DNA of 32,000 nt from an uncultured archaeon. GTDB lineage: Archaea > Micrarchaeota > Micrarchaeia > Micrarchaeales > CABMGC01. The translations under genes and the position numbers were made by a program. A model generated the notes under the pieces. The model made no database searches. It was not told the origin of the DNA and saw nothing but the letters and a program-made list of their open reading frames with translations. The stretch is from positions 240,001-272,000 of the forward strand of contig OY969902.1 of the NCBI GenBank assembly GCA_963704435.1. The letters are read 5' to 3'. The number at the start of each line of letters is the position of its first letter. The first letter of the stretch is position 1. Positions 12,477 to 29,930 of the stretch are shown here, one piece after another.

Positions 12477-13367
12477 ATGCCGGATTCAAGATGCAACAGG
12501 CATTTCAGGTCGCAGTCCGCGATGGAGTACCTGATGACCTACGGATGGTCGATCCTCATAATCACGGTGATCCTGGGCGCGCTCTACAGCGTCGGCGCGT
12601 TCGGATCGTCGAACATCGGCCCCCGCGCGCCTCCGGGGAACTGCAAGATATTCCGGTCGTCGGGCGAGGCCAACCTCGAGGGCACGTGCGGCGGTGTCCT
12701 GCCGCAGCAGGTCGCGCAGTTCAACGGCCAGAGCTATGTGTATGTGGGCAGCAATGCGTTGCAGATGAACAACCTTGCGACCGCTTTGACGGTGTCCATA
12801 TGGGCGGATCCGCAGAGCCTAGGCCCCAACAGCCAGTACCTGTTCTCCAATTCGAGAGATAGCGGTGGCACTTACAACGGTTACAATCTGTATGTGTCCA
12901 ACACCGGAGTGCCTATCTTCCTAGTATGGAACCTGGCCTCCAACAGCGTATCGGGGGGCACGCTAAGCATGAACGCGTGGTACCAGGTGGCAGGCGTCTA
13001 TGACGGATCGTACCTTTACATATACGTGAATGGTGCGCTTAAAAACAAAATCGCGTATTCTGGAGGGGTAGGCGTACCTTCGTCCTACGGCGCGCTGATA
13101 GGCGTGCTCGCATATAATTATCCTACGTATTACAAATTCGTAGGAGACCTTGCGAATCTGCAGATTTACAACACCTCCCTCGACGCCAATCAGATACAGA
13201 CGCTCTACATCAAGGGCATAGGCGCCGCTCCGGTGGATCCGTATCACATTATAGGATGGTGGCCGCTGAACGGCAACGCCACTGACTACAGCGGAAACAA
13301 CAACGGCGGAGCAGCGACCAACGTCATCTACACGGGCTCGTGGCTTTCGGGATATACCCCTCCTTAA
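12477..13367 (+). CDS. Class III signal peptide (archaeal type IV pilin-like) protein with a LamG/concanavalin-A-like lectin domain
   Basis: RSQSAMEYLMTYGWSILIITVILGALY matches the archaeal prepilin motif ((K/R)(G/A/S)-QSAMEYL.TYGW plus a hydrophobic helix). LamG_3-like blocks are LTVSIWADP, WYQVAGVYDGSYLYIYVNG and FVGDLANLQIYNTSLDANQIQTLY. Confidence 0.7.
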   Translation: MPDSRCNRHFRSQSAMEYLMTYGWSILIITVILGALYSVGAFGSSNIGPRAPPGNCKIFRSSGEANLEGTCGGVLPQQVAQFNGQSYVYVGSNALQMNNLATALTVSIWADPQSLGPNSQYLFSNSRDSGGTYNGYNLYVSNTGVPIFLVWNLASNSVSGGTLSMNAWYQVAGVYDGSYLYIYVNGALKNKIAYSGGVGVPSSYGALIGVLAYNYPTYYKFVGDLANLQIYNTSLDANQIQTLYIKGIGAAPVDPYHIIGWWPLNGNATDYSGNNNGGAATNVIYTGSWLSGYTPP

Positions 13368-13412: not shown

Positions 13413-14472
13413 GTAGGGACTTGACAAATTTTAAGTCTTTGCACCCAATATGATTTCGGGGGTTTTCTCTTCTCTTTTTATCGTCGGGAAAATAAGGTCG
13501 TGAGTCTCCTGGACGGCCGATACGTCAGTGTATCGACCGCCTTGCCAGGAGTTGAAGACAATGGAAATCTATGAACTAAAGAATAAAATAATAGAAGTTT
13601 GGGCTGCGGCTAAGGTGATCGTGCAGAAGTTCGGGCATACGAGGAAGTTTGCGAAGCATCTTGTCGCCTTTGCGATAAGGCAACATGAGAATCTTACCGA
13701 CGTAAGACTCGCGGAGTTCCTAGTCAGGGACCCGATAGGAAAGATCCTTGGTTACACGAGGAAGCCGCATCCGTCGACCTTCTCGAAGGTGCGGGAACGG
13801 TCGGATGCGGAGATGTTTGCGGAACTGCACAACTGGATAGTGCAGGACCGGATGAAATCAAGGCAACTGCGACTTATCGTGCAGGACAGTACCGACGTCT
13901 TCGCATATTCGCGCAAGGACGGCGATGCGAGGTGGGGGCACAGAACTCCGTCAAGGAAAGAACAACTGATGCAAAACCTCGGCAATGGGAAAGAACTGTT
14001 CTTCGGTTATAAACCACATGTAATCGTAGAAGCCGAGACGGAAACGCCACTTGCAATTGAGGTCATACCTGCGAACACAAACGACAAGAAGATGTTCTGG
14101 CCGCTGTACGACAGAGTAAAGAAGACCTTTCAACTGCAGTATCAGTCAAAATACATTGCGGATGCACAGTACCACGCATCAGCGATAAGGATGCAGTTGC
14201 GCGACGATGGCCTAACTCCAGTAATCCCGAGAAGCGGCAACAAGTATCTGAAAACAGAGAACCCGAAGGATCCGGAGTATGGGAAGAGGTGGGCCGTCGA
14301 ACACCTCTTTGCAAGGTTGAAGGAGCTGTTCGGGCTTGCAAAGAACAGGTTCGTTGGCATAAAGAAGGTCAGGATTCACGTGTTTTCCTGCCTCCTCGCA
14401 AACCTGATCGAATACGTGATGTGAAGGGGTTTGTATTTGACGAGGTGACTGAATGTAAATGTCAACTCCCTA
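13413..14472 (+). mobile_element. Complete IS element (about 1060 bp, IS4/IS5-superfamily DDE transposase) with terminal inverted repeats and a 6-bp target site duplication
   Basis: The left end TAGGGACTTGACA (13414-13426) matches the reverse complement of the right end TGTCAACTCCCTA (14460-14472) at 12 of 13 positions. GGAAAG is directly duplicated at 13407-13412 and 14473-14478. The GC content is lower than in the flanks. Confidence 0.75.
13528..14424 (+). CDS. DDE transposase (DDE_Tnp_1, IS4/IS5-like)
   Basis: Motifs: LIVQDSTDVFAY (D), KYIADAQYHA (D), and KRWAVEHLFARLKELFGLAKNRFVGIKKVRIHVFSCLLANLIEY (the E-containing C-terminal signature). The listed start is GTG at 13528. ATG at 13561 (MEIYELKN) is an alternative. 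Confidence 0.8.
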   Translation: MYRPPCQELKTMEIYELKNKIIEVWAAAKVIVQKFGHTRKFAKHLVAFAIRQHENLTDVRLAEFLVRDPIGKILGYTRKPHPSTFSKVRERSDAEMFAELHNWIVQDRMKSRQLRLIVQDSTDVFAYSRKDGDARWGHRTPSRKEQLMQNLGNGKELFFGYKPHVIVEAETETPLAIEVIPANTNDKKMFWPLYDRVKKTFQLQYQSKYIADAQYHASAIRMQLRDDGLTPVIPRSGNKYLKTENPKDPEYGKRWAVEHLFARLKELFGLAKNRFVGIKKVRIHVFSCLLANLIEYVM

Positions 14473-14522
14473 GGAAAGTCCCCTCCCTCAGGGATATAAA
14501 CCTATTCAGCGGATTCTAGTCC

Positions 14523-16028
14523 ATGGGACTCATCAAGGTCCAGAACGTGATGAGCAACGAGCTCGCGAAGAGGACCATCTTCAGCAGGCCGCCCGAGCCG
14601 CCACAGGAATACCTGCTCAACGATCCCACGAACTCGATATTCATAGGCATAACCAAGCTCTTCAGCGTGCCCTTCACGTGGACGTTCGCCGGCCTGACCA
14701 ATCCCCACATATCCGTGGTCGGAATAACCGGAGCCGGGAAGAGCTTCTTCGTGAAGACGTTCCTCATAAGGGCCAGCTACATCTGGAACACCAACGCGAT
14801 AATAATAGACTGGGCAGGGGAGTACAAGGCGTGGGTCAACCAGAGCGGCGGGGTCACCGTCTCACTGGGGAAGGGCGACTACATCAACATCATGGACCTA
14901 TCGGGCATGAAGCCCCTCGACAGGTCCAAGCAGATACTCACGTCGCTCGAGATACTCACGGACCTCTCGGAATATCCCGAGCAGAAGAGGCTCACAGAGG
15001 AGGCCATAGAGCAGGCGTACACGAACTTCGGGTTCAACCCCGCCGAGACGCCCCCTCCTAACAAGGAGGCGCCCACGTTCAAGGACGTGATAAACCTCCT
15101 GGAGGAGAAGCTGCAGGAGGGCACCTACGAGTATCCGGCGGAGCTCGAGAACGCGGTCTACAGGCTCAGGCAGTTCGCCCGCGAGGGGGAGGACTACTTC
15201 GCGAGGAAGAGCACCATAGACCTCGACAAGCTGATAACCTCGGGGCTGGTGGACATAGACCTGTCCAGCCTCCCGGACGAGAGGTTCAGGGCGCTTGCCG
15301 CGCTGTTCATGCTGCAGACGCTGAAGGAGAAGATGAGGATGGAGGGCTGGAGCGCTTCGAAGGGGCTTAAGGCATTCGTCGTCCTCGACGAGGCGTGGAA
15401 GGTCGCGAGCGACGAGAGGAGCGACGCGATCACCATAGTCAGGGAGGGCAGGAAGTACCAGTTCGGGCTGATTGTCGCGTCGCAGAACCCGACGGACATC
15501 AACGAGGCGATATTCTCCAACGTGGGCACATCCATAATGCTCAGGATAAGGTTCGAGAAGTTCCTCGACTACCTGCAGGGCTCGCTCAACTTCTCTAACT
15601 TCATGAGGAGCGAGATCAGCAAGTTCGGCGTAGGGCAGGCCGCGGTGGACATGTCGTTCCAGACATCGGTGCAGTTCCCCGAGGTGTTCCTGATAGACAG
15701 GGTGGTGGGCGAGATACCCCTCGACGTCTACACCGTGGGCGTCACGGGCGTGCTCAACCAGGCCGAGCTCGAGGACACGAGCCTGCAGAAGGAGTACTAC
15801 TTAGAGAGGATAGACCTGAACTCGAAGTTCATACAGTCGAACGTGAACTCTGTCGCGATAGACGAGATCTTCAGGGAGCTGGACGCGAGGAACAGGAGCA
15901 TCGACATAAGGGGCCTCGTGCAGGTGATGCTGAGCAAGAAGGTCAGCAAGGACACCGCGGTCGAGCTCCTCAGGAGCTTCGGGCTCTCCGACGCCATAAT
16001 AACCAGGGTCTTCATGTACATATCATAG
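14523..16028 (+). CDS. FtsK-HerA superfamily P-loop ATPase, VirB4/TraC (AAA_10)- or HerA (DUF87)-like
   Basis: Walker A is HISVVGITGAGKSFFVK. Walker B is KAFVVLDEAWKV; DEAW is characteristic of VirB4/TraC. It is followed by REGRKYQFGLIVASQNPTDI...SNVGTSIMLRI. No TM segment is seen. Confidence 0.8.
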   Translation: MGLIKVQNVMSNELAKRTIFSRPPEPPQEYLLNDPTNSIFIGITKLFSVPFTWTFAGLTNPHISVVGITGAGKSFFVKTFLIRASYIWNTNAIIIDWAGEYKAWVNQSGGVTVSLGKGDYINIMDLSGMKPLDRSKQILTSLEILTDLSEYPEQKRLTEEAIEQAYTNFGFNPAETPPPNKEAPTFKDVINLLEEKLQEGTYEYPAELENAVYRLRQFAREGEDYFARKSTIDLDKLITSGLVDIDLSSLPDERFRALAALFMLQTLKEKMRMEGWSASKGLKAFVVLDEAWKVASDERSDAITIVREGRKYQFGLIVASQNPTDINEAIFSNVGTSIMLRIRFEKFLDYLQGSLNFSNFMRSEISKFGVGQAAVDMSFQTSVQFPEVFLIDRVVGEIPLDVYTVGVTGVLNQAELEDTSLQKEYYLERIDLNSKFIQSNVNSVAIDEIFRELDARNRSIDIRGLVQVMLSKKVSKDTAVELLRSFGLSDAIITRVFMYIS

Positions 16029-16036
16029 GTGTCGCC

Positions 16037-16333
16037 TTGGGATCCACTTTCACCATCGGCAGGATAATGCTGAAGCGGACGCTCATTGCGCTCGGCATGA
16101 GCGAGAAGAGCGTGGACGAGCTGCTCGCGGAGCTAAACAAGACGCACAGGCACGCCAACGCGGTGGCGTTCGCGGGCTCCCTGCAGAGGCTGGGGCTCAA
16201 GCAGGAGGACATCGTAAACGTGCTCAGGAGGATAGGCATAGACGACATAACTATATCCAGCATCTTCAACGTCGTGGACGAGGAGAGGATAAAGAGCGCT
16301 TACGGGAGGGTCGTCGAGATATACATTCAATAG
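16037..16333 (+). CDS. Small helical protein with three L-x2-(L/I)G(M/L/I)-type hairpin motifs
   Basis: It lies 8 nt after the ATPase stop. The motifs are LIALGMSEKSVDELL, LQRLGLKQEDIVNVL and LRRIGIDDITISSIF. The listed start is TTG at 16037. ATG at 16067 (MLKRTL...) is more likely. Confidence 0.5.
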   Translation: MGSTFTIGRIMLKRTLIALGMSEKSVDELLAELNKTHRHANAVAFAGSLQRLGLKQEDIVNVLRRIGIDDITISSIFNVVDEERIKSAYGRVVEIYIQ

Positions 16334-16335
16334 GC

Positions 16336-16701
16336 GTGTGCATGGCGAAGACATACTGCATGATCTGCGGGAAGGAGAAGGGCGGGATAGCCGTCGAGGA
16401 GGACTACGTCCTCGGCGCGATAAGGTGGTTCAAGAGCAACGTCACCAGGAACGAGAAGGGGAACCGTCTGGTCGTGTGCAGGGACTGCTACGCGCAGTAC
16501 AAGAAGGAGAGGAAGAGGTACGAGTCCAGGCAGGTCGTCTACGCGGTGCTCGGCGTGCTTTTCTTCGTCGTGAGCGTGGCGATGTTCCCGAGGGCGACCA
16601 CTGTCGCCGTATCCATCGGGGTCTGCGCGCTCCTGTACCTCTTTTCGCTGATGAGCTACGTGCCCAGGGTATCTCAAAGACCGCAGCAGCGCAATCAATA
16701 A
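16336..16701 (+). CDS. Zinc-ribbon protein with a C-terminal two-helix TM hairpin
   Basis: CMICGKE...x34...CRDCYAQY supplies four Cys in CxxC pairs. Two hydrophobic helices follow: VVYAVLGVLFFVVSVAMF and VAVSIGVCALLYLFSLMSYV. The likely true start is ATG at 16342 (MAKTYC...). Confidence 0.6.
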   Translation: MCMAKTYCMICGKEKGGIAVEEDYVLGAIRWFKSNVTRNEKGNRLVVCRDCYAQYKKERKRYESRQVVYAVLGVLFFVVSVAMFPRATTVAVSIGVCALLYLFSLMSYVPRVSQRPQQRNQ

Positions 16702-16734
16702 ATACGTTGATAGAGATAGAAGGACGTGAGTTAG

Positions 16735-17463
16735 TTGCCCGAAGAAGAGACCGAGGTGGAGCCCAAGATCGAGAGGGTGGAGTTTCCGGGCAAGCTCAAC
16801 GGTACGGTCTCTGCCGTGAAGGACAAGGTCGCGCAGATGCCCTTCTACAACTTCCGCGAGGCGGAGGGCGGCATAGACATAGTCAGGGTCGAGAGCAGGA
16901 ACGTGCGCAAGAAGCCCTTCCTCTTCTACATAATAACGGTCAAGCCTGACGCGCTCACGCTCACCTATTCCATAGTGCCTGGGAGCAGCGACAGGCTCAG
17001 GAGGGCGGTCGTGATAAAGAACCTTGCCTCGATACTGTCGGTGATATCGGACAGCTTCGCCATAGAGGAGGGCAAGTTCTTCCAGTACGTCGATTCGGTG
17101 CTCGATAGCCTGATAAACGGCATGTCGCAGGGGTACAGCACGCTGTTCAACAAGTACGACGCGGTCGCCGGGGAGTACGCGGAGCTGAAGAAGCTGGCCA
17201 ACGACCTCGCGATGTCCAACAAGAACCTAACGACCCAGACCAGCCAGCTGAGCGAGGAGAACAAGACGCTCAACGAGCAGCTCATGTCGCTGCAGACCTA
17301 CTCGGACGACGCGCTGATGGGCATGGTGGAGGACTGGATAGAGGTGCACAGCAGCGCGATAGACGTCGGGGAGTTCTCCAAGACCTACAAGGTCCCGGAG
17401 CCCAGGATCGAGCAGATACTCGACAAGATGGTCGCCGCGGGCTACATAGAGCTCAAGGGTTGA
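16735..17463 (+). CDS. Hypothetical protein with a central coiled coil and a C-terminal winged-helix-like segment
   Basis: Heptad-like stretch EYAELKKLANDLAMSNKNLTTQTSQLSEENKTLNEQLMSLQ. The C-terminus IDVGEFSKTYKVPEPRIEQILDKMVAAGYIELKG resembles a wHTH. TTG start. Confidence 0.55.
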   Translation: MPEEETEVEPKIERVEFPGKLNGTVSAVKDKVAQMPFYNFREAEGGIDIVRVESRNVRKKPFLFYIITVKPDALTLTYSIVPGSSDRLRRAVVIKNLASILSVISDSFAIEEGKFFQYVDSVLDSLINGMSQGYSTLFNKYDAVAGEYAELKKLANDLAMSNKNLTTQTSQLSEENKTLNEQLMSLQTYSDDALMGMVEDWIEVHSSAIDVGEFSKTYKVPEPRIEQILDKMVAAGYIELKG

Positions 17464-17473
17464 GGCTGGGCGC

Positions 17474-17626
17474 ATGAGATACAACGTGACCGTGAACAAG
17501 AAGTACAGGCACGTGAAGGTGTACCGCATCGTAAAGCGGCTCAACGAGAGCACCAACCCGCTCTCCGCGGCTTTCGCCTCCCTGGTCGACAGGTTCGTGA
17601 GCTCAAGGTCCAAGAGGTCGGGATGA
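17474..17626 (+). CDS. Unlisted 50-aa basic ORF (MRYNVTVNKKYRHVKVYRIVKRLNESTNPLSAAFASLVDRFVSSRSKRSG)
   Basis: Translated by hand; it falls below the ORF-track length cutoff. ATG at 17474 is 10 nt after the previous stop. Its TGA (17624-17626) overlaps the ATG (17623-17625) of the next gene in an ATGA arrangement, suggesting translational coupling. Confidence 0.4.
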   Translation: MRYNVTVNKKYRHVKVYRIVKRLNESTNPLSAAFASLVDRFVSSRSKRSG

Positions 17627-19974
17627 TGAGACTAAGGACCGCGATAATCGCCGTCGTCGTCTTCGCAGTGCTGTTCTCCGCGCTCGTGCTCTACATAAGG
17701 TCCCTCGCGAGCAGCTTCGTCCCCTACGTCACTCCCGCCGCGCCCGGCCCGGTATCGCTGCAGGCGCACGTCAACACGAGCAGGATGATAACCTACAACG
17801 ACACCCACAACCTCGCGGACTACGCGCTCGTGTCATACTCGCTGAGGAACGCGACGAACGCGATCGTGACGCTGGCCGCCTACACTCGGAACCCAATGCC
17901 GCGGATATACCTGCTCAACGTCAGCGCGTACTGCCTGTCATGCTTCAGCTCGGACTACCTAAGTTCGATCCTCCGCTCGGACCTGGCGCAGTACGGGATC
18001 ATAAAGAACGCAACCAGCTTCAGCTACGTCAATGTCACCAACGCGGGCAGCATACCCCGGAACTCGATCGTGATAGTGCCATCCGGCGTACTGCCCCGCC
18101 CGCTCATCGGGAGCTCAAACGCTAGCGTCTTCGCGATGCTGAACAGGGGAGATACGATAATCTTCGCAGGCAGGAACTTCTCGAGCAGGTCGATAGACCT
18201 CAACAGCCTGGTGTACGTTGATTCAGCGAGCGTCATCTCGCAGTTCCTCTCATTCGGCATAGCCGAGGCCCCGTTCACGAACGCGGTCAACAAGTCATTC
18301 ATACCCGCGAACATGAGCTTCCGAGGCCAGACCACGGTGCTGGTCGGAGGGAGGCAGTACGGGAACGCGACCTTCATCAACTCGGCAAACGGAACGGTAA
18401 TAACTTTCACGAACTATCCCACGTCCGGATGGAACAGCGCCCAGGATATGGCGAACGACATCTCCAGCGCCGTGAATTCGAGGTTCTGGATCCCGAACCC
18501 CGGGCGCGGCGGGACGTCATTCGCGGTCGGCGCGAACGGCATAGGCAACGTAGGCGCGGTCGCGATCCTTTCCAGCGTCGTGAACAGCACGAGCATCGGC
18601 AGGATCGCGAACGGAACTTACTCCTTGGTGTCGGTGGCCGCAAGGGGCCCCGGCGGCACCGCGATGGAGGAGTTTGCCTTCCGGAACCAGTACGCGTGGA
18701 AGGGCCTCGTGGGCGTGCAGTCCGTGGCAGGGGAGCGTCAGAACATCCCGCTGACCGTCTTGGTGAACGGAAATCCGAACGCCAACACCAGCGTCCTTCT
18801 GCATCTCGACATGTACGACAAGAACATGAGCTACGTGGGCACGATACCGCTCGCGTTCGTGCTCGTGGGCAGCGAGGTCGTGCAGTACAGGTCGTTCGCC
18901 TTCCCCAGCGGCTACTACCTGATGGAGCTCAAGGACTTCAGCAACAACCTCTACTCCGAGGCGCTCTTCTATCTCACGAACGTGACCTTGAACGCCACCT
19001 CGCTGGACTTCAAGAACGCCACCTTCTCGTTCAGCGCGTTCAGCAATGGCCTTCCGATAACCAACACTACCTACTCCATAAGCATAAACGGGGCGTACAG
19101 CAGCTCCGGCATAGTCAGGAACGGGACGTTCGACTATTCGCTCCCGAAGGGGACGATAGTCAACTACGGCAACGAGGTGTTCCGCATAATGATGTTCAAC
19201 ACCAACTACACCGTATCCGAGCAGTACCAGCAGAACATACTCCACATCCCACCGATATACATCGAGTTCGCAATCGCGATAATCGTCGTGGTGCTCCTGA
19301 ACCTCATCCTCAGGCCGCCCCTGAGGGACGAGTACTACATAGACGTTCCCGAGTTCCCGCCATCCAAGGCAGAGAAGGTCGGCGTGCAGTCGGGATCGGT
19401 GCTCGGCGTCTTCGACAAGGTGAACTACTACTACCGCTGGACCTACATGCCGCTCACCGTCGGTGAGATAAGGCTGGGGATAAACAACAACATAAGGGCC
19501 AATAACATGCCCGTGGCCGTGACTACGCAGAACGCCAACATAGTGCTGGCTAAGCTCGTCATGGACGGCAAGCTCGTGAGCTCCGGGGAGTACTATGCGC
19601 CGAAGGCGTGGGTGGACTCGTCGAAGCACAGCATAGACTACCTGGTAATATTCAGGAAGCTGAGGGACTACTGCGTCTCGCACGCCATACTGTTCACGGA
19701 CCTGGACTCCGACAAGACGGAGGACATGCTCGTGACCAAGGACGGCAGGCGGAGCGGCGTCTTCATATCCGCGCCCGGGTCGAAGACGAAGAGCATCCCG
19801 CTCTCGAACGACTCGAAGAGCTTCCTGGTCTTCCTGGACGACGCCGCGAGGCAGGATTTCGTAAAGAGCCTGTACACGTCGCTGGGCAAGGAGGCGGAGA
19901 TGCTGAAGCTGGGCATAGAGTACAACTACATAAGGCTGGTCGACTGCGATCACCTGGACCAGCTGGAACTCTAG
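17623..19974 (+). CDS. Large bitopic membrane protein: N-terminal TM, about 530-aa sequon-rich ectodomain, second TM, about 220-aa cytoplasmic domain
   Basis: First TM is TAIIAVVVFAVLFSALVLYI. More than 20 N-x-S/T sequons follow. Second TM is IYIEFAIAIIVVVLLNLIL. The soluble C-terminal region has no recognised motif. Confidence 0.7.
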   Translation: MMRLRTAIIAVVVFAVLFSALVLYIRSLASSFVPYVTPAAPGPVSLQAHVNTSRMITYNDTHNLADYALVSYSLRNATNAIVTLAAYTRNPMPRIYLLNVSAYCLSCFSSDYLSSILRSDLAQYGIIKNATSFSYVNVTNAGSIPRNSIVIVPSGVLPRPLIGSSNASVFAMLNRGDTIIFAGRNFSSRSIDLNSLVYVDSASVISQFLSFGIAEAPFTNAVNKSFIPANMSFRGQTTVLVGGRQYGNATFINSANGTVITFTNYPTSGWNSAQDMANDISSAVNSRFWIPNPGRGGTSFAVGANGIGNVGAVAILSSVVNSTSIGRIANGTYSLVSVAARGPGGTAMEEFAFRNQYAWKGLVGVQSVAGERQNIPLTVLVNGNPNANTSVLLHLDMYDKNMSYVGTIPLAFVLVGSEVVQYRSFAFPSGYYLMELKDFSNNLYSEALFYLTNVTLNATSLDFKNATFSFSAFSNGLPITNTTYSISINGAYSSSGIVRNGTFDYSLPKGTIVNYGNEVFRIMMFNTNYTVSEQYQQNILHIPPIYIEFAIAIIVVVLLNLILRPPLRDEYYIDVPEFPPSKAEKVGVQSGSVLGVFDKVNYYYRWTYMPLTVGEIRLGINNNIRANNMPVAVTTQNANIVLAKLVMDGKLVSSGEYYAPKAWVDSSKHSIDYLVIFRKLRDYCVSHAILFTDLDSDKTEDMLVTKDGRRSGVFISAPGSKTKSIPLSNDSKSFLVFLDDAARQDFVKSLYTSLGKEAEMLKLGIEYNYIRLVDCDHLDQLEL

Positions 19975-23163: not shown

Positions 23164-24000
23164 TCACCGCACAAGGTTCTTTACCGCATCAGACAGTGGA
23201 ACGTTAAGATCTGTCGCGGGCTTTTCGAGCATGACGAATTCGTATTCCGACTCCTTTAGAAGCAGGCCCTGCGCCATCCCGTCTACGATCTGGCCATTCA
23301 TGTGTTCCCCTTTGTCTTTCTGCGCAGGTATGAAGACCCTGCGTTCATATTTGTGCGGGACCCCGTGCTCTGCGCTCTTCTTTTCAGGTATCCACTTATT
23401 CTCCACGTAAGTGACACTGACGTTGCTGTGCTGCTTTGTCAGGCGTCCTATGATCTCGCGACCAAATTCCGTCTGCATGCTGAAAGCGGTTCCCCTGTCG
23501 TCTCTTTCCCTGCCCCTTTTTTCGGCGGAGTCCACGAGCACTGCGATTATTTCATTGAGCTCCCCGAGTTCAGCCAAGTGTGCGGGATACCTGCTTCCAA
23601 GCGTGCGCAGGAAATTCGCATAGATTTCGTTCAATCTCTCGGCATCGAGCTTCCTCTCCGATGCGTGGTGCGAGGATCTTTTCATGATCCGCTGCAGTTC
23701 TATTTTACCATCCACTCCTATCCCGATGTGGCTAGGATAGGAAAAGGTTGCGTCAGAGCGTTCGCTTCCATCTATGAAGTAGACGCGCAAGTTCGTCTTT
23801 ATTCCGGAAAGCTCAGACAGGCTCCTGCTAAGGCTTTCAACATACCACGGTATGAAACTCGAATTTATATCGATTCCGAGAGTTGCTTCTGGCGCAGTGC
23901 CATAGCGCGCGCTTTCGTATGCTGAGCGCTTCAGCTCAGTGAATATCTGTACGGGCGACTTGTGCTCGACGAGCACGCTGACTTCAGTAGGACTAGACAT
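23164..24000 (-). CDS. Hypothetical protein (278 aa) at the edge of the low-GC island
   Basis: Long ORF with intermediate GC. No family recognised. It is convergent with the EF-Tu-like gene (31-bp gap). Confidence 0.55.
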   Translation of the reverse strand: MSSPTEVSVLVEHKSPVQIFTELKRSAYESARYGTAPEATLGIDINSSFIPWYVESLSRSLSELSGIKTNLRVYFIDGSERSDATFSYPSHIGIGVDGKIELQRIMKRSSHHASERKLDAERLNEIYANFLRTLGSRYPAHLAELGELNEIIAVLVDSAEKRGRERDDRGTAFSMQTEFGREIIGRLTKQHSNVSVTYVENKWIPEKKSAEHGVPHKYERRVFIPAQKDKGEHMNGQIVDGMAQGLLLKESEYEFVMLEKPATDLNVPLSDAVKNLVR

Positions 24001-24096
24001 TACAGGGCTTTAGAGTGGTGTACTGCTCCTCTGTCATGCAACTCACGTAACTATTCCTTTGCATGGCCACATATTTATGCCTTGCGTGTGGGCCAG

Positions 24097-24149
24097 CTTT
24101 GTCCATAAAGTCCCTCTTGTCCATAAAGTGTCAATCTTGTCCATAAAGT
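24097..24149. repeat. Three direct copies of (C)TTGTCCATAAAGT spaced 18 and 20 bp apart
   Basis: Copies lie at 24099-24111, 24117-24129 and 24137-24149; the first is preceded by an extra T. They sit between the type IIG stop (24152) and the start of the 278-aa gene (24000), exactly at the GC step. Confidence 0.8.
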
Positions 24150-24151
24150 CG

Positions 24152-26833
24152 TCACACAGTTTCTTCTATTAGTTCTATTTCTTTTTTATCAGATATTCCA
24201 TAAATGTTGTATACTTGTTCATTGATTTCTTTATCTATTCTTTGAATCTCATCTTTCAGCTCGATAGCCCTATTTGTTTTATCCTTTGTTTCCATGAGTT
24301 CATTATTTAGCGAAATAATCCTATCTACTAATTTTATAATTTGATTCTGTTTGGTTTTATCTTTTTTGATAGGTATCTGTTTTAAGTAAATTCGTTTAAT
24401 GTTAATATCGACAAAAAGTTTTCTAAACCAATAATTAATCAGGTTGGAATTTATTATTCCGAGAACATATTTAGTTGAATAGCCTAAGCTTTCGTCAATT
24501 ATTATATTATTTAGGTTTTGAAGAGTATAGTATTTTTGATTATCATAGGCTACAATAAGCCTTCTTGGTAATTTCAGATTTCTTATGAGTTGAACTAATA
24601 ATTTCTGCTCATTTAGATATACTCTCTCATCCCAACAGCCTCCGCCTGCACTACTTTTATCAAAATAAATATATTTGTTATTAAATCTCAGCCAGTATCT
24701 TCCAATATCTCTACCACTTAAGAGGGGTTTATATTTGCTATTTTTCTGAGTATCAAAAATACATTCTTTATTATTACGAGTTACCATACCTCTATAAACT
24801 TCTCCTATCTCTCCAAGAGGTATTGAACCTCTTTCTATCTTCTTCTTTATACTATCAAAGCGGTCATCTACAACTACATTAAAGGAGTAAAAGTTAGATT
24901 TCAAAAAGGATTTTTGATATATTTTCTTTTTATCTTTGATTTTCAACTGAGCAGAATTGCTGTCTCCAGAATAAAATGTAAGCTTATTCTTTAATCTAAC
25001 TTTTTCATCGGATTCTTTTTGGAGTATAAGTATACAGGTATCTACATTTGCTGATTTAAAGACGTCTTTTTTCAAATCGTATATTTGTAAGATTATGGTT
25101 TTATCAAGTATGAGTTTTCTAAGATTACAAAAATATTTGTTGTTTATTATGCTGTTAGGTATGATGAATCCTAAAATTCCACCATCTTTAAGCAAGGATA
25201 TTGCCCTTTCTATAAATAATGCAAAAAGGTTGGGATTAGATTCGGCAGATACATAACCTTTGTCAGATTTGTAAAATTCATATTCATCTGGGTTCTCATT
25301 TGAATATATGACATCGTATGGTGGATTTCCTATTATAATGTCAAATCCGCCATTGTCAAGTATCTCTTTAAATTTTGACCGCCATTCAAATGCATTTTCT
25401 TTTGCGACAGTTTCATCATCTATTAAAGAATTACCATTTTTGATATTCTGTTTTAAATCTGGTAGCCTGTGTTTTGTCTCTGCAATCCTCAATAATAAAT
25501 TAAGTTCGGTTATTTCTACTGCTTTTCTATCAAGGTCAACGCCAAATATGTTATTCCTTAAAACCTTGGTTTTATTTGTAAGTCTCCTTAAGATGTCTTC
25601 CTTATTGACATCTAATTCTGTTTGAGAATAATTTTTATTCTTCTGTTTATAACATTCATCAAGAAAATCAAATGCACCTAAAAGGAAAGAACCAGAACCG
25701 CAAGCCATATCTAAAACTTTTATATTTTCAATATGATTGGGCTTTTTATTTTTTATTGCATTTCCTATAGTATTTTCAACAATATAATTGACTATATATG
25801 TAGGCGTATAATATATTCCTTGATTTCTTCTGAATACTTGAATATTTCCTATATATTTTTCATACATAGAGCCTAATACATTTGCATCAATTTCATTGAA
25901 TTTATATTGATAAATATCGTTTTTATCATAGGTTTCTTTAAGTATTTTATAATATGTTTTGTTATCTATATTAACAAGTTCTGCTTCATGTCTCTCAGAA
26001 AAATCTGATTCGTTATAAGTAAAAAGTTTACTATCGTAAACTTTATCATATTCTTCAAATAATTTGTTAACTTTATCTTTTATTATGATATATCTATTAT
26101 TATCATACTGATTTAAAATTTCCTTTAAAGTTTCATCAGACTTTGCTTCAAGTTTTCTATCCTCTACAGTCCTAATAAATATTATTCTATTAAGTAAAAT
26201 CTGTGCGATTTCTTCCAACGCTTCATCTGAATGTGGTTTTTTATTATTCTTCTTGATGGAAGAGATTATCTTTTTACGCCATGATAGAATATCATTAAGA
26301 AGTTCTTCATCTATTCTAATAGTCTTTTTTATTCTTCCTTCCTCTTCGGCTATTTTATCTATCCGTCCTGTTTCAAAACTTTCTCTTGATAGAAGTAATA
26401 TGTCATCTAATTTTTCAATAAGTTTTTTGTAATTTATGCGCCTAAAGATATGGTTTATGAGTGATGCTTCTTTTGTATCGCAGATTAAAATTATAGTCTC
26501 TTCGAAGTTAGATAATACTGCCCACCTTTTATTTTTATTTCTTCCATAGTTCAATGCCTGAATTATGTCTCCTTCTTCGATGCTTTTGACCTTTTTTGTT
26601 TCTAAGAAAAAGGCTATGCTATTGTTTAAATAAAAAATATAATCAGGTCTTCCTTGTGGTTGATTCTTTTGTTCTTTAACTTCATCAGTATCATCCATGC
26701 GCCAACCAAGATAACCAAAAAGGGGTTCAACATATGCTCTACAGATATCTCTTTCTGATTCTTCACTATGGTCTTTGCTATCAAAGTCCCGAATTTTCTT
26801 AATTAGATTCTTCTTCAGAAGTTCTTTATCCAT
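24152..26833 (-). CDS. Type IIG restriction-modification enzyme: PD-(D/E)xK nuclease, N6-adenine methyltransferase and TaqI_C-like specificity domain in one polypeptide (Eco57I-like)
   Basis: N-terminal HsdR_N-like nuclease core GRPDYIFYL...AFFLETKK. SAM motif VLDMACGSGSFLLGAF. Catalytic motif IIIGNPPYDV. The C-terminal region (YWLRFNNKYIYFD...LGIINSNLINYWFRK...LKQIPI) resembles the TaqI_C target-recognition domain. Confidence 0.85.
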   Translation of the reverse strand: MDKELLKKNLIKKIRDFDSKDHSEESERDICRAYVEPLFGYLGWRMDDTDEVKEQKNQPQGRPDYIFYLNNSIAFFLETKKVKSIEEGDIIQALNYGRNKNKRWAVLSNFEETIILICDTKEASLINHIFRRINYKKLIEKLDDILLLSRESFETGRIDKIAEEEGRIKKTIRIDEELLNDILSWRKKIISSIKKNNKKPHSDEALEEIAQILLNRIIFIRTVEDRKLEAKSDETLKEILNQYDNNRYIIIKDKVNKLFEEYDKVYDSKLFTYNESDFSERHEAELVNIDNKTYYKILKETYDKNDIYQYKFNEIDANVLGSMYEKYIGNIQVFRRNQGIYYTPTYIVNYIVENTIGNAIKNKKPNHIENIKVLDMACGSGSFLLGAFDFLDECYKQKNKNYSQTELDVNKEDILRRLTNKTKVLRNNIFGVDLDRKAVEITELNLLLRIAETKHRLPDLKQNIKNGNSLIDDETVAKENAFEWRSKFKEILDNGGFDIIIGNPPYDVIYSNENPDEYEFYKSDKGYVSAESNPNLFALFIERAISLLKDGGILGFIIPNSIINNKYFCNLRKLILDKTIILQIYDLKKDVFKSANVDTCILILQKESDEKVRLKNKLTFYSGDSNSAQLKIKDKKKIYQKSFLKSNFYSFNVVVDDRFDSIKKKIERGSIPLGEIGEVYRGMVTRNNKECIFDTQKNSKYKPLLSGRDIGRYWLRFNNKYIYFDKSSAGGGCWDERVYLNEQKLLVQLIRNLKLPRRLIVAYDNQKYYTLQNLNNIIIDESLGYSTKYVLGIINSNLINYWFRKLFVDINIKRIYLKQIPIKKDKTKQNQIIKLVDRIISLNNELMETKDKTNRAIELKDEIQRIDKEINEQVYNIYGISDKKEIELIEETV

Positions 26834-26836
26834 AGT

Positions 26837-27352
26837 CTAATCCCTTCGTGTTAAGAGATATGCCCCAAGTCCAATTGCCAAAATTCCAGCTATGCCTATT
26901 GCAATTTTCTTATTTCTATCATCAGTTTCTTTTTGTTTTACTTCATTCGCTATTTCAGAAGATAAACTTTTCAACTGAGTTAATACATTAATTAATTCAG
27001 GAATATTCGTTCTATTAAATTCATATGATGTGGATTTAAATCTTGCTGGTTTAGGAACATCTATTCCTCTTTCTGTAAACACATAGGCAGGACGATTAAA
27101 AGCATGTATTACTCCTAATTCCCACATTACCATATCACGTGTATTTTTATTTTCTATTACATTTTTCGTTATAAAAATAAATGCACTATGTGAATTATAG
27201 ATAGCTCCTATGAGTTTTTCGTGTAATGGACTCGGCTCTGCTGGTTGTAGTTCAGCAAGATATGGAAAGATATTTCCATTTTCAATTTGTGAAACTAAAG
27301 CAGTTATATCTAAATCATCTGAACTATGCGAAATAAAAATTTGAATGGCCAT
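26837..27352 (-). CDS. TIR-like domain protein with a C-terminal transmembrane anchor
   Basis: The start MAIQIFISHSSDDLD matches the TIR beta-A/BB-loop pattern (FISHS..D). A conserved-type Glu lies in VMWELGVIHA. The C-terminal hydrophobic helix IAIGIAGILAIGLGAYLL is followed by TRRD. The stop is 3 nt before the R-M start. Confidence 0.6.
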   Translation of the reverse strand: MAIQIFISHSSDDLDITALVSQIENGNIFPYLAELQPAEPSPLHEKLIGAIYNSHSAFIFITKNVIENKNTRDMVMWELGVIHAFNRPAYVFTERGIDVPKPARFKSTSYEFNRTNIPELINVLTQLKSLSSEIANEVKQKETDDRNKKIAIGIAGILAIGLGAYLLTRRD

Positions 27353-27353
27353 G

Positions 27354-27521
27354 CTATTCCTCTGGTTCTTTCCAGCCTTGCGCTTCTATCTCATCGTCTA
27401 ATGCTTTCTGCACAAAACGAGATAGGTTAATGCTTTTTGCCTCGATAAATCGCTGATGCTTAGGCAATAAAGTAATAGTCTTGGGTATCGCCCTTTCTAT
27501 TGGTTTTCTTTGTTTTCCCAT
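27354..27521 (-). CDS. Unlisted 55-aa ribbon-helix-helix (CopG/Arc-like) protein (MGKQRKPIERAIPKTITLLPKHQRFIEAKSINLSRFVQKALDDEIEAQGWKEPEE)
   Basis: Hand translation of the minus strand, from ATG at 27521-27519 to TAG at 27356-27354. A beta-strand (KTITLL) followed by INLSRFVQKALDDEI fits the RHH pattern. The stop is 1 nt before the TIR gene ATG (27352). Confidence 0.55.
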   Translation of the reverse strand: MGKQRKPIERAIPKTITLLPKHQRFIEAKSINLSRFVQKALDDEIEAQGWKEPEE

Positions 27522-27524
27522 GTT

Positions 27525-27578
27525 ATACGTATTATACGCAAAGCTATATATACCTATTCATTCGTAATACGTATTATA
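27525..27578. promoter_or_regulatory. Two identical 12-mers ATACGTATTATA (each with the palindrome ATACGTAT), 42 bp apart, in the divergent promoter region
   Basis: Copies lie at 27525-27536 and 27567-27578. They flank a CTATATATAC TATA-like box (27544-27553), between the RHH start (27521) and the likely transposase start (27603/27609). Confidence 0.35.
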
Positions 27579-27602
27579 AGTGTAATAAGTAAGGTGCGAT
27601 GT

Positions 27603-28799: not shown

Positions 28800-29320
28800 A
28801 CTTTCTTTTGACTCTGTCTTTTTATAAACTCAGCTCTATATAGACCATATCTCATAATTGTCCCGATAGTTAGCAATACAGCAAATACTGCATAGGAAGT
28901 AAAGAAGGTAGAGAAAAAGAATAGCAGAATATTTTCTATGAGATTTGATGAAACATTTACAAAAATAGAAGAGACTATATCTATAGAAATGCTCACTCCT
29001 GCTAAAATTGATGAATACCAAAAAATGAATAATAAGCTATCGTAAATCTTGTTCTCTCTTAATAATGAAACGAAATCATTATCTGACATTGATACGAGTA
29101 TTGTCAAAGATGCAATAACAATTGCTATCATACCCGAAGCTATTGTAGCGTATATTGGTGATATAACTTTGAGTAAAGTTATTACCAATCCTGACTGATA
29201 ACTTATACTGGTAAAAATAATGGCAAGTGCCAATGCTAAAAGAAAATCAACAGAAGTAATTAACTTTGTTAGCTTATATTTCCTAAGCATAGCAAAGAAA
29301 GTCGTATCTTCGTATCTCAT
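28796..29320 (-). CDS. Small integral membrane protein (about 4 TM helices)
   Basis: Hydrophobic segments: VDFLLALALAIIFTSISY, IYATIASGMIAIVIASLTILVSM, LLFIFWYSSILAGVSISIDIVSSIFV and ILLFFFSTFFTSYAVFAVLLTIGTIM. The ATG overlaps the upstream gene stop (ATGA). Its stop overlaps the convergent transposase stop (TTAA). Confidence 0.65.
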   Translation of the reverse strand: MRYEDTTFFAMLRKYKLTKLITSVDFLLALALAIIFTSISYQSGLVITLLKVISPIYATIASGMIAIVIASLTILVSMSDNDFVSLLRENKIYDSLLFIFWYSSILAGVSISIDIVSSIFVNVSSNLIENILLFFFSTFFTSYAVFAVLLTIGTIMRYGLYRAEFIKRQSQKKV

Positions 29321-29871: not shown

Positions 29872-29930
29872 GTCAAAATCTGTTTGATATGTTCTGGATT
29901 CTGTTTAAAAAGTCAGCCTTCAGTTAGTTC

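Follow-up and report, generated by a model that had tools for sequence, protein, structure and literature searches.

Gene Organization and Genomic Context

The locus was analyzed within a 32,000-nt stretch of DNA (the window) from a Micrarchaeota (DPANN) archaeon. Six plus-strand open reading frames, encoding proteins of 501, 98, 121, 242, 50, and 783 aa, were confirmed in the ORF list (Table 1). Intergenic gaps are 8, 2 (to 8), 33, and 10 nt, and p50 and p783 overlap in an ATGA arrangement; the original prediction had the genes, their positions and their spacing right throughout. A TATA-like box was read from the sequence ahead of the ATPase gene, and a comparable box, TTTAAATA, is present at the same distance from the ATPase start in the related locus L040. 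A promoter at this box would yield a leaderless or short-leader transcript.

Table 1. Features of the ATPase locus and its upstream neighbors (positions in the window).
Feature	Position	Strand	Comment
LamG-domain protein	12477-13367	+	Pfam Laminin_G_3, E 3e-21; prepilin-like hydrophobic N-terminus
IS5/IS4-type insertion sequence	~13414-14472	+	Between LamG and ATPase genes; bounded by 13-bp TIRs (13414-13426, 14460-14472)
Putative archaeal TATA-like box GGATATAAAC	14491-14500	+	Centered ~26 nt before ATPase start codon; read from sequence
ATPase gene	14523-16028	+	501 aa
p98 gene	16037-16333	+	98 aa, TTG start
p121 gene	16336-16701	+	121 aa, GTG start; ATG 6 nt further downstream
p242 gene	16735-17463	+	242 aa
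p50 gene	17474-17626	+	50 aa
p783 gene	17623-19974	+	783 aa

The GC content of the operon (0.52-0.60) is the same as that of the flanking DNA, and the window shares its topo VI-B and KH-domain protein neighbors with two related loci (L001 and L002). Housekeeping genes surround the locus, whose composition is host-like. Viral contigs yielded no relatives and plasmids no close ones, the plasmid matches being at most 28% identical. The original description of the composition as host-like rather than plasmid-like holds. Some 4 kb downstream there is a low-GC island.

The presence of a LamG protein upstream, separated from the ATPase gene by an insertion sequence, was also borne out. Its DDE transposase is intact and matches DDE_Tnp_1 (E 9e-22) as well as IS5/IS1182 models; the terminal inverted repeats match at 12 of 13 positions, with GGAAAG on either flank. 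In five related genomes the LamG gene abuts the ATPase gene with no such element in between. The element is a genuine simple insertion and no part of the machine. The LamG protein carries RSQ|SAMEYLMTYGW... in its prepilin-like N-terminus, has one transmembrane (TM) segment (18-36), and matches the NCBIfam TafC fimbrial protein below threshold (6e-7). LamG genes occur within 12 of 81 related loci at varying positions, directly upstream of the ATPase in five, and giant LamG proteins head a compact paralogous system in locus L089. As a candidate, the protein would be a minor pilin or an adhesin at the cell surface; its linkage to the system is recurrent but loose.

The Motor ATPase

Walker A (GITGAGKS) and Walker B (VLDEAW) motifs are present in the 501-aa protein together with RKYQFGLIVASQNPTD, and no TM segment is predicted, as originally described. 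Key residues K73, D289, E290, R307, R310, and Q321 are invariant across the family. A P-loop NTPase resembling the VirB4 C-terminal domain (~58-400) is followed by a helical C-terminal domain of ~90 aa. Only 57 residues precede Walker A, so a HerA-type HAS-barrel N-domain is absent; the VirB4 N-terminal domain is lacking as well. Pfam matches were DUF87 (top), AAA_10, and P-loop_TraG. The best NCBIfam matches were CedD (7.6e-19), VirB4_plasma (1.6e-18), CD1110 VirB4-like (7e-18), and CedB (4e-17), all far below their cut-offs; no curated family cut-off was reached, and these searches did not place the ATPase firmly inside a family of known function with the same conserved partners. One family member has already been auto-named "DNA import protein CedB."

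The VirB4-like character proposed at the outset was supported at two levels. Among PDB sequences the top match is 4AG5 (E 4e-10), a C-terminal domain of VirB4, and the AF2 model (pLDDT 86) is best matched by 4AG5/4AG6 in a Foldseek search of the PDB (E 4e-17, TM 0.78, rmsd 3.3-3.6). By sequence and predicted fold, the protein belongs to the VirB4/HerA superfamily, where VirB4, in its C-terminal ATPase domain, is nearest.

A Conserved 14-Gene Cluster

Relatives were taken from one-genome-per-species GTDB contigs, and at least 582 were confirmed. The best 80 of these are overwhelmingly MAGs labeled Micrarchaeota, with ATPases 69-84% identical; across the related loci, identity to the L001 ATPase is 67-100%. 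Most of ~80 Micrarchaeota species preserve the order ATPase-p98-p121-p242-p50-p783; their versions of the partners are called p99 (p98), p118 or p118zn (p121), p245 or p245cc (p242), p51 (p50), and p781 (p783). Counting only related loci long enough to show the neighbor in question, p99 and p118zn come after the ATPase in 76 of 77 cases; for p245cc and p781 the count is 60 of 65. Linkage this consistent is more than chance, and the synteny check suggested with the original prediction came out in its favor.

The proposed six-gene unit proved too small. Its genes are indeed linked; however, in most relatives the unit comprises 14 genes, with eight more upstream, in the order M1-M6, T1, T2, ATPase, p99, p118, p245, p51, p781. 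T2 adjoins the ATPase in 61 of 72 loci, and at least five M genes lie upstream in 47 of 52. M1-M6 are six paralogous polytopic membrane proteins (mutual paralogy 96-99.5% by hhalign), and T1 and T2 are membrane-anchored proteins that are also mutual paralogs (97%). No M, T, or pilin-like genes were found within the 32-kb window, which holds only the distal part of the cluster; any M/T half of this genome would lie beyond it. The five other genomes mentioned above, in which LamG abuts the ATPase, show the same arrangement. T-ATPase fusion proteins of ~885 aa occur in distant relatives (T1 HMM down to 1e-7), and minimal versions of the system retain M, T, the ATPase, and p245. Median identity across loci is 33-45% for the M proteins and 39% for p781 vs 73% for the ATPase. 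Profile searches identified no relaxase, coupling protein (T4CP), or nuclease in the cluster. We found no paper describing it.

Partner Proteins of the Motor

All four partner descriptions in the original prediction were confirmed: a zinc ribbon with a membrane hairpin, a coiled coil with a winged helix, a basic 50-aa peptide, and a sequon-rich bitopic 783-aa protein. An HMM of the p99 family hits the window ATPase at residues ~400-490 (E 4e-8) and likewise most ATPase family representatives examined, although similarity between p98 and the ATPase was not significant by pairwise BLAST. By these profile matches p98 appears to be a soluble stand-alone paralog of the ATPase C-terminal helical domain, and it may regulate the motor or act as its adaptor.

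In p121, a CxxC...CxxC pattern is followed by TM helices 67-85 and 88-106. The four Cys columns are conserved in 82-100% of 74 homologs, and the zinc ribbon is weakly matched by DUF2116 (Pfam) and TIGR04104 (NCBIfam). The protein is a cytoplasmic zinc ribbon on a two-helix membrane hairpin that could tether the motor to the membrane, in a position analogous to that of VirB3. In distant relatives there is a zinc ribbon fused behind the ATPase (P0220) or a DZR protein heading the cluster (L087).

In the 242-aa protein, a coiled coil (~130-195) separates an N-terminal domain from a C-terminal winged helix. A homolog lies immediately behind the ATPase in three distant loci: L084 (E 4e-29), L087 (3e-29), and, with a weak match, L083. 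The cytoplasmic p242 is a core partner, kept even in minimal versions of the system. The top PDB match of its winged helix is that of CdvB (2XVC, E 4e-4), and of 23 family members examined 17 match EAP30, 15 PCI, and 17 ZapB (coiled coil) in Pfam. A housekeeping role would also fit this CdvB/ESCRT-II-like winged helix, as well as how very strongly the ATPase is conserved. Homologs of p50, which by eye has 12 K/R vs 2 D/E, were found by tblastn in 57 related loci, each time flanked by p245cc and p781 (HMM E 7e-24); no Pfam or NCBIfam family matched.

Two TM helices (7-25 and 545-563) are predicted in the 783-aa protein, which carries 23 N-x-S/T sequons overall and ends in a ~220-aa cytoplasmic tail. 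In the AF2 model (pLDDT 82), the ectodomain (~45-535) comprises an alpha/beta part followed by Ig/FN3/macroglobulin-like beta-sandwiches, and Foldseek matches in the PDB were to Ig, FN3, and alpha-2-macroglobulin MG domains. The cytoplasmic domain is modeled as a winged-helix-like part plus an alpha/beta part and had no sequence match in PDB or Pfam. Only 19 homologs were found, and those named are Micrarchaeota. This bitopic surface glycoprotein may be coupled to the motor and serve as an adhesin or as a stalk across the envelope.

Likeness to Type IV Secretion and Ced/Ted Systems

Except for the ATPase domain, all links to named T4SS or Ced components are below curated thresholds. CedA was the only NCBIfam family matched by more than two of the 65 M proteins scanned (3/65); the best match, to an M protein of the cultivated Ca. 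Micrarchaeum A_DKE, covers 150 residues at E 5.3e-6 and scores 26 bits vs a cut-off of 330. T proteins, which are without the ATPase domain, match VirB4_plasma (three members, 4e-5) and CedB (one member, 2.4e-9). In compact systems, T4SS_pilin is the top match of small proteins encoded ahead of the M genes (E 2e-4 and 4e-3; 21.8 vs a cut-off of 26.6), and the one at E 2e-4 also matches TrbC/VirB2 (0.01). A small pilin-like protein in L089 matches the N-termini of M HMMs (E 5e-6). At one locus a T-ATPase fusion protein adjoins a CedA1-domain protein; the CedA1-domain protein of L085 has no detectable similarity to M profiles. Searches of PDB sequences, VirB6 and VirB4 entries included, with M, T, and p783-tail profiles found nothing.

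In the Ced system, CedB and CedD combine TM segments, a VirB4-like N-terminal domain, and the ATPase, CedA and CedE are VirB6-like, and the CedA1 pilin shares homology with the N-terminus of CedA (PMC11868833; PMC9905601). That homology is mirrored here by the pilin-like protein and the M N-terminus. M1-M6 weakly match the VirB6-like channel protein CedA, and the soluble domain of T1/T2 weakly matches VirB4/CedB profiles and is fused to the ATPase in distant relatives. The original statement that the gene set does not resemble Ced is correct for the six genes alone, but the upstream genes and compact systems give sub-threshold CedA-, VirB2/T4SS-pilin-, and VirB4/CedB-like signals.

Interpretation and Alternatives

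The six genes are probably the motor plus accessory and surface module of a chromosomal, vertically inherited, T4SS-derived, Ced/Ted-like translocon of Micrarchaeota. The broader idea of an uncharacterized envelope or DNA-transfer machine is partly supported: the VirB4-type motor and conserved partners stand, the unit is larger than proposed, and the dissimilarity to Ced is limited to the six genes alone. By analogy with Ced/Ted and with the T4SS of epibiotic Patescibacteria, which is chromosomal and essential for epibiosis (PMC12102498), its most likely job would be to transfer DNA, or some other macromolecule, between the micrarchaeon and its Thermoplasmatales host.

A T4SS-like machine need not move DNA. 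It could build or export a VirB2-like filament, LamG adhesins, or p783, or deliver or extract proteins or other molecules at host contact. The recurrence of LamG surface proteins beside the ATPase family, the large glycosylated Ig-like p783, and the missing relaxase, T4CP, and nuclease suit this reading. In nanohaloarchaea, effector secretion by giant surface proteins bearing a VirB4-like domain has been proposed (PMC10266531), and the role of the Patescibacteria T4SS has not been settled either (PMC12102498). However, the tested archaeal relative Ced transfers DNA (PMC11868833) and Ted is inferred to do so (PMC9905601), the winged-helix-like modules of p242 and the p783 tail could bind DNA, and distant fused ATPases carry, by eye, a wHTH and a nuclease-looking C-terminus. 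We regard a machine that does not move DNA as unlikely. A housekeeping apparatus for chromosome segregation, cell division, or membrane remodeling, built from an FtsK/HerA-superfamily pump, a coiled-coil/winged-helix adaptor, and membrane proteins, would account for the unusual conservation of the ATPase, its presence on at least 582 genome contigs, the adjoining topo VI-B gene, and the CdvB, EAP30/ESCRT-II, and ZapB matches of p242. Those winged-helix and coiled-coil matches are generic, though; FtsK_SpoIIIE scored 14.7 vs a Pfam cut-off of 24, the ATPase fold is nearest to VirB4 and not FtsK/HerA, and CedA-, VirB4-NTD-, and T4SS-pilin-like signals appear among the partners. Because the surface-exposed partners (M, p781) evolve so much faster than the ATPase, an interaction surface suits the cluster better than a division machine does, and we consider the housekeeping reading distinctly unlikely.

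That the locus is an integrated conjugative element or plasmid remnant and no host system seems very improbable. VirB4-like ATPases are typical of conjugative elements, Mia14 genomic islands have been suggested to be such elements (PMC5498576), and both the insertion sequence directly upstream and the low-GC island might be taken as marks of mobility. Against this stand the host-like GC, the shared topo VI-B and KH-domain neighbors, ATPase identity holding at 67-100% over ~80 species, and the viral and plasmid comparisons given above; the surroundings of the cluster showed no integrase, relaxase, or tRNA border. It is scarcely credible that the ATPase is a cytoplasmic DNA-repair helicase of the HerA type, or a defense HerA, lying beside membrane-protein genes by accident. 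DUF87, the "HerA central domain," is the top Pfam match of the ATPase, NCBIfam HerA and antiphage HerA models match at E 1e-10 to 4e-14, and many HerA structures match the model, but at TM ~0.5 vs 0.78 for VirB4. The short N-terminus without a HAS-barrel, the linkage to membrane partners conserved in 60-76 loci, and the lack of NurA, Mre11, Rad50, Sir2, or DUF4297 neighbors in the window, L001, and L002 also speak against it.

In the preferred Ced/Ted-like translocon, the ATPase would be a hexameric motor at the membrane, docked via T1/T2 and the p121 zinc-ribbon hairpin onto the M-protein channel, with p98 and p242 regulating it or recruiting substrate. The membrane-spanning p783 would be coupled to the motor by its cytoplasmic domain; its glycosylated Ig-like ectodomain would pass through the S-layer and contact the partner cell or support the conduit. 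LamG prepilin-like proteins would provide adhesion. The cluster may be a route by which the tiny symbiotic Micrarchaeota exchange material with their hosts.

Operon structure and flanking regions

Six plus-strand genes with the ATPase at their head had been predicted to form an operon, and the ORF listing agrees with the prediction at every coordinate. The genes are separated by gaps of 8, 2, 33, and 10 nt, and p50 and p783 overlap in an ATGA arrangement. The composition is host-like, as had been proposed, with operon GC (0.52-0.60) equal to that of the flanks. Both the LamG gene upstream and the insertion sequence (IS) between LamG and the ATPase gene were confirmed. The IS is a simple and probably recent insertion, because it ends in 13-bp inverted repeats (TAGGGACTTGACA / TGTCAACTCCCTA), has GGAAAG at either flank, and encodes an intact DDE transposase. 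Only one copy was found within the window; a copy ~72% identical across 416 nt is carried by a related genome locus (L058). A TATA-like box (GGATATAAAC) is centered ~26 nt 5′ of the ATPase start codon, and a similar box occupies the equivalent position in another related locus (L040), from which we infer that the operon has its own putative promoter.

A low-GC island (28-39% GC vs ~58% elsewhere) was observed toward the 3′ end of the window. An 893-aa ORF in it encodes a TaqI/BrxX-like N6-adenine DNA methyltransferase region (PDB phmmer E 1.5e-8). It was probably acquired horizontally as a restriction-modification or defence island.

Features of the window and gene clusters in related loci (p98 to p783 are the window genes 3′ of the ATPase gene; M, polytopic membrane protein; T, membrane-anchored protein; L numbers, related genome loci)
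Feature	Coordinates	Strand or position	Basis or content
LamG protein, prepilin-like N-terminus	12477-13367	5′ of operon	Laminin_G_3, E 3e-21 (Pfam)
IS5/IS4-type element	~13414-14472	between LamG and ATPase genes	298-aa DDE transposase, TIRs
ATPase, 501 aa	14523-16028	+	ORF listing
ATPase C-terminal domain, ~90 aa	15720-16028	+
p98, 98 aa	16037-16333	+	ORF listing
p121, 121 aa	16336-16701	+	ORF listing
p242, 242 aa	16735-17463	+	ORF listing
p50, 50 aa	17474-17626	+	ORF listing
p783, 783 aa	17623-19974	+	ORF listing
Low-GC island	24000-30000		GC content
Methyltransferase-like ORF, 893 aa	24152-26833	-	PDB phmmer
L084 minimal system			T-ATPase-p245
L087 minimal system			zinc ribbon-M-T-ATPase-p245
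L083 minimal system			82-aa two-TM protein, then M-T-ATPase-p245
L089 compact second system	L089:1-8113 (GCA_028866715.1)		LamG (747 aa)-LamG (1073 aa)-128 aa-M-T-ATPase

The ATPase

The 501-aa protein carries the Walker A (GITGAGKS) and Walker B (VLDEAW) motifs noted originally, and no TM segment was predicted in it. The Walker motifs are invariant across the family, and the protein has a P-loop ATPase domain of the kind found at the C-terminus of VirB4. Pfam matches were to DUF87, AAA_10, and P-loop_TraG. Among NCBIfam models, CedD, two VirB4 models, and CedB scored 62-68 bits and HerA 49-52 bits, all far under the cut-offs. Individual scores against the respective cut-offs were 67.8/600 bits for CedD and 62.1/700 for CedB (both Ced equivalogs), 39.8/643, 47.3/567, and 65.8/590 for the VirB4 models TIGR00929, TIGR02746, and NF045975, and 49-52 against 800-970 for HerA. 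Of PDB sequences, 4AG5, a VirB4 C-terminal domain, is the closest (E 4e-10). The AlphaFold model (pLDDT 86) also ranks VirB4 first (4AG5/4AG6, E 4e-17, TM 0.78, rmsd 3.3-3.6), followed by the DndH/DptH C-domain and then HerA. The suspected kinship with VirB4 is thus borne out by the best PDB match both in sequence and in fold, and together these identify the protein as a VirB4-type ATPase.

Walker A begins at residue 67; therefore neither a VirB4 N-terminal domain (NTD) nor a HerA HAS-barrel is present. In the Pfam scan the VirB4 N-terminal domain PF03135 was absent from the 501-aa polypeptide, which falls short of a total of ~800 aa, and the model and TM prediction gave no TM or NTD of the kind that precedes the ATPase in CedB and CedD. 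Only short strands precede Walker A in the model, where no HAS-barrel was seen. The final ~90 residues form a helical domain.

With HerA-NurA the ATPase shares a P-loop of the FtsK-HerA superfamily, a DUF87 central domain, and an expected hexameric ring. It differs in the missing HAS-barrel, in the lower structural match, in its conserved membrane partners, and in having no linkage to NurA, Mre11, or Rad50, none of which is a neighbor in the window or in the related loci L001 and L002. A HerA repair helicase was rejected on domain architecture, neighbors, and fold ranking (TM ~0.5 vs 0.78 for VirB4). FtsK was rejected on the same three grounds; PF01580 (FtsK_SpoIIIE) reached 14.7 bits against a cut-off of 24, and its match spans only 23 residues.

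Conservation and gene order in relatives

More than 1,000 ATPase homologs were detected. Identity within the best 120 is 71-100%, and nearly all that carry a name are labeled Micrarchaeota. A survey of one genome per GTDB species confirmed at least 582 relatives. The best 80 of these loci have 69-84% ATPase identity and, with few exceptions, Micrarchaeota labels; the cultivated Ca. Micrarchaeum sp. A_DKE is among them (NZ_CP060530.1, ~801-822 kb). A profile built from more distant members found the family also in Anstonellales/Bilamarchaeaceae and Ca. Iainarchaeum. One representative (P0330, Ca. Bilamarchaeum dharawalense) is named "DNA import protein CedB" by NCBI and UniRef, although family scores fall far short of the curated CedB cut-off.

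The six genes recur in L001 and L002, where topo VI-B and a KH-domain protein lie downstream of them, just as in the window, and eight additional plus-strand genes lie upstream. Searches of all loci with tblastn gave the canonical order M1-M2-M3-M4-M5-M6-T1-T2-ATPase-p99-p118zn-p245cc-p51-p781, where the last five are the relatives' versions of p98, p121, p242, p50, and p783. Counting only loci long enough to show the neighbor in question, p99 and p118 adjoin the ATPase in 76/77 and p245 and p781 lie downstream of it in 60/65, so that the linkage of these partners holds in relatives. T2 is directly upstream in 61/72, and five or more M genes lie upstream in 47/52. The six genes of the original prediction are therefore conserved together, but in most relatives they belong to a larger cluster of ~14 genes. 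A profile search found no M or T gene inside the 32-kb window; LamG lies directly 5′ of the ATPase, as in the window, in five other genomes. As judged from gene content, the cluster is evidently divisible into modules. Between M6 and T1, some Micrarchaeota lineages encode an additional protein of 755 aa (L037:5973-8240) that has one TM and is rich in Lys, Arg, and Ala.

Median identities to the L001 proteins are 73% for the ATPase, 56% for p245, 52% for T2, 39% for p781, and 33-45% for the M proteins. By this measure the cytoplasmic motor is conserved and the surface parts have diverged.

Membrane proteins and fused or compact relatives

M1-M6 are mutually paralogous (hhalign 96-99.5%) and predicted to be polytopic. 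T1 and T2 are also paralogs (97%); a two-TM hairpin is N-terminal in T1 and a single strong TM is present in T2, followed in each by a soluble domain of ~200 aa. When 65 M proteins were compared with NCBIfam, Ced_CedA was the sole family matching more than two (3/65), the best match being M4 of A_DKE (residues 197-349 on profile positions 102-243 of 259, E 5.3e-6, 26.2 bits vs a cut-off of 330). None of the 65 matched the TrbL/VirB6 Pfam families, and profiles of M6, M4, T1, and T2 matched no PDB sequence. Among 49 T proteins, which have no ATPase domain, three match VirB4_plasma (best 4e-5) and one matches CedB (2.4e-9). These sub-threshold similarities weakly suggest M as CedA/VirB6-like candidates and T as a candidate VirB4/CedB N-terminal domain.

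About six representatives of 690-910 aa are fusions in which two TM helices and a T domain precede the ATPase. This layout, seen only in distant fused relatives, is the TM, VirB4-like NTD, and ATPase architecture published for CedB and CedD (PMC11868833). Fusions of ~885 aa (P0174, P0165, P0168, P0173, and P0205, the last at L085:1224-3890) have a winged helix-turn-helix 3′ of the ATPase domain, and a PD-(D/E)xK-like motif was noted by eye behind the ATPase (e.g., ADILVNRKIAFEVETRG). The L085 fusion adjoins a gene whose product is annotated with a precomputed CedA1 domain from Pfam; the M profiles showed no link to this product in hhalign.

The compact system of L089 is paralogous and encodes a T-like protein without TM and a 370-aa ATPase; this MAG comes from the REEA series that also includes L001 and L002, which are Micrarchaeota MAGs. 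The top Pfam matches of its 128-aa protein are T4SS_pilin (E 2e-4) and TrbC/VirB2 (0.01), and the protein also aligns to the M HMMs over their N-terminal part (5e-6), a relation that reproduces the one between the CedA1 pilin and the CedA N-terminus in Ced (Beltran et al., PMC9905601). A PDB sequence search with it was empty. The 82-aa protein of L083 matches T4SS_pilin below threshold (4e-3). Both small proteins may be VirB2-like. The original view that the gene set is unlike CedA/A1/A2/B must therefore be revised, since Ced-like partners (CedA, T4SS_pilin, CedB) are found in relatives, although below threshold.

Proteins encoded 3′ of the ATPase gene

Judged by family profiles, p98 is a stand-alone paralog of the C-terminal domain of the ATPase. 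The p98-family profile matches the window ATPase at E 4e-8 and other members at values as low as 1e-18; pairwise BLAST detects no relation, and the family profile is needed. The predicted features of the remaining products were all recovered: CxxC...CxxC followed by two TM helices in p121, a coiled coil and C-terminal winged helix in p242, a strongly basic p50, and TM helices at residues 7-25 and 545-563 with 23 sequons in p783. Zinc ribbons accompany the ATPase family in three arrangements, fused 3′ of the ATPase in the representative P0220 (residues 685-707), in a soluble double zinc-ribbon protein heading the L087 cluster (L087:603-941), and with the membrane hairpin in p121. Homologs of p242 are retained as a core partner in the minimal systems too. 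Its winged helix is nearest to that of CdvB (2XVC, E 4e-4) and also matches ESCRT-II and PCI winged-helix models, a likeness that we treat as generic.

The p783 model (pLDDT 82) has an ectodomain terminating in Ig/FN3/macroglobulin-like sandwiches and a cytoplasmic part that resembles a winged helix plus an alpha/beta domain. Searches with p98, p50, and p783 gave nothing significant in Pfam, NCBIfam, or PDB sequences, nor did PDB and Pfam searches with the p783 cytoplasmic tail. No link among the p783 tail, p242, p99, the T proteins, and the fused-ATPase C-terminus was found with hhalign; the idea that the tail is a PD-(D/E)xK nuclease akin to that C-terminus is therefore unsupported. Identification of p783 as an S-layer protein was rejected.

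Comparison with known systems

Ced (CedA, CedA1, CedA2, CedB, CedD, and CedE; Sulfolobales) and Ted (TedA, TedB, and TedC; Thermoproteales) are chromosomal T4SS derivatives without an outer-membrane complex, and the same appears to hold here. Like Ced and Ted, the present system and its relatives have several paralogous polytopic proteins, here CedA/VirB6-like candidates, and a small candidate pilin that matches the N-terminal part of the polytopic protein. Type-IV-pilin-like adhesion proteins accompany both Ced (Ups) and the present system (LamG prepilins). In Ced the VirB4/HerA-like ATPase has its VirB4-NTD-like membrane anchor in cis, whereas here the anchor is apparently in trans (T1/T2) and in cis in distant relatives. 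Unlike Ced, no component reaches a curated cut-off (CedB 62/700 bits, CedD 68/600, CedA 26/330). The separate ATPase and the six M paralogs also differ from Ced/Ted, and p98, p121, p242, p50, and p783 are without a known counterpart there. The carrier is a mesophilic or acidophilic DPANN episymbiont, in contrast to the hyperthermophilic crenarchaea that carry Ced/Ted.

The likeness to bacterial VirB4 T4SS lies in the ATPase, nearest to 4AG5 in sequence and fold, and in the minimal set of candidate polytopic channel, membrane tether, and pilin-like protein, which would resemble a monoderm (MPF-FATA) core. Unlike in those systems, PF03135 is not part of the ATPase polypeptide, no VirB3, VirB8, VirB1, or T4CP was recognized, and the carrier is an archaeon with a single-membrane envelope and an S-layer. 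Patescibacteria carry chromosomal T4SS (PMC12102498), which are similar in being apparently vertically inherited, in having no recognizable relaxase, and in their ultrasmall host-dependent carriers. In Nanohaloarchaeota, giant SPEARE surface proteins contain a VirB4-like domain, and a role at the host interface has been proposed for them (PMC10266531). These DPANN symbiont proteins combine an Ig-like ectodomain, a TM, and a cytoplasmic part with a VirB4/TraG-like ATPase; here p783 and the ATPase are separate products of one operon, and the likeness is one of architecture. Sec, Tat, and LamG proteins are listed in the Mia14 genome paper along with two type IV pilus systems, and DNA exchange is raised there as a speculation; the present system is unmentioned (PMC5498576). 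No paper describing the cluster was found by full-text literature search.

Possible function

Sequence and model evidence together point to an envelope machine that derives from T4SS, resembles Ced/Ted, and is chromosomal and apparently vertically inherited in Micrarchaeota. VirB4 would be split, with T1/T2 supplying the membrane anchor and N-terminal domain and the 501-aa protein the ATPase, and the window would hold the motor and the accessory or surface genes. The main thrust of the original prediction, an archaeal envelope or DNA-transfer machine, is thus retained, in a system larger than six genes and with Ced-like partners in relatives. The data show the identity of the ATPase, its linkage to conserved partners, and the existence of paralogs and fusions; the assembly model and any substrate we infer.

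By analogy with Ced/Ted, DNA transfer would be the default function. The search for a relaxase, coupling protein, or nuclease identified none, so a machine that exports or imports proteins or other molecules where the cell meets its host must be taken seriously as an alternative. The cluster may also be a housekeeping segregation or division apparatus, a reading kept in view by the very high conservation of the ATPase and the division-like motifs of p242. An integrative conjugative element or plasmid is unlikely, given the host-like GC, the conserved housekeeping neighbors, a distribution that is broad (at least 582 genome loci) and fits vertical inheritance, the lack of relatives among 2.9 million viral contigs, and plasmid matches of at most 28% identity. 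The envelope machine could, in a more far-reaching form that we regard as possible but rather unlikely, be a Micrarchaeota-wide symbiosis conduit: a domesticated split-VirB4 T4SS in which a six-paralog channel and a p783 stalk bridge the S-layer to a wall-less Thermoplasmatales host and import host DNA, nucleotides, or other macromolecules. It would then be the archaeal counterpart of the essential Patescibacteria T4SS, independently reached in two ultrasmall radiations.

Implications

DPANN archaea have to acquire whatever they are unable to produce themselves, and to our knowledge no dedicated transfer machine has been established in Micrarchaeota. A specific conserved cluster of ~14 genes, present in several hundred or more species genomes related to Micrarchaeota and also in Anstonellales and Iainarchaeum, provides a concrete, testable candidate for the Micrarchaeota-host interface, with a well-modeled motor, a defined surface component, and a cultivated carrier (A_DKE). 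Where there was a vague idea of pili and pores, proteomics, cryo-ET, and interaction assays now have named proteins to address. The system would take archaeal T4SS-derived machines beyond Thermoproteota, with VirB4 apparently split between N-terminal-domain and ATPase genes. Patescibacteria likewise have a chromosomal T4SS, and this parallel suggests that episymbionts have convergently adopted machines derived from conjugation.
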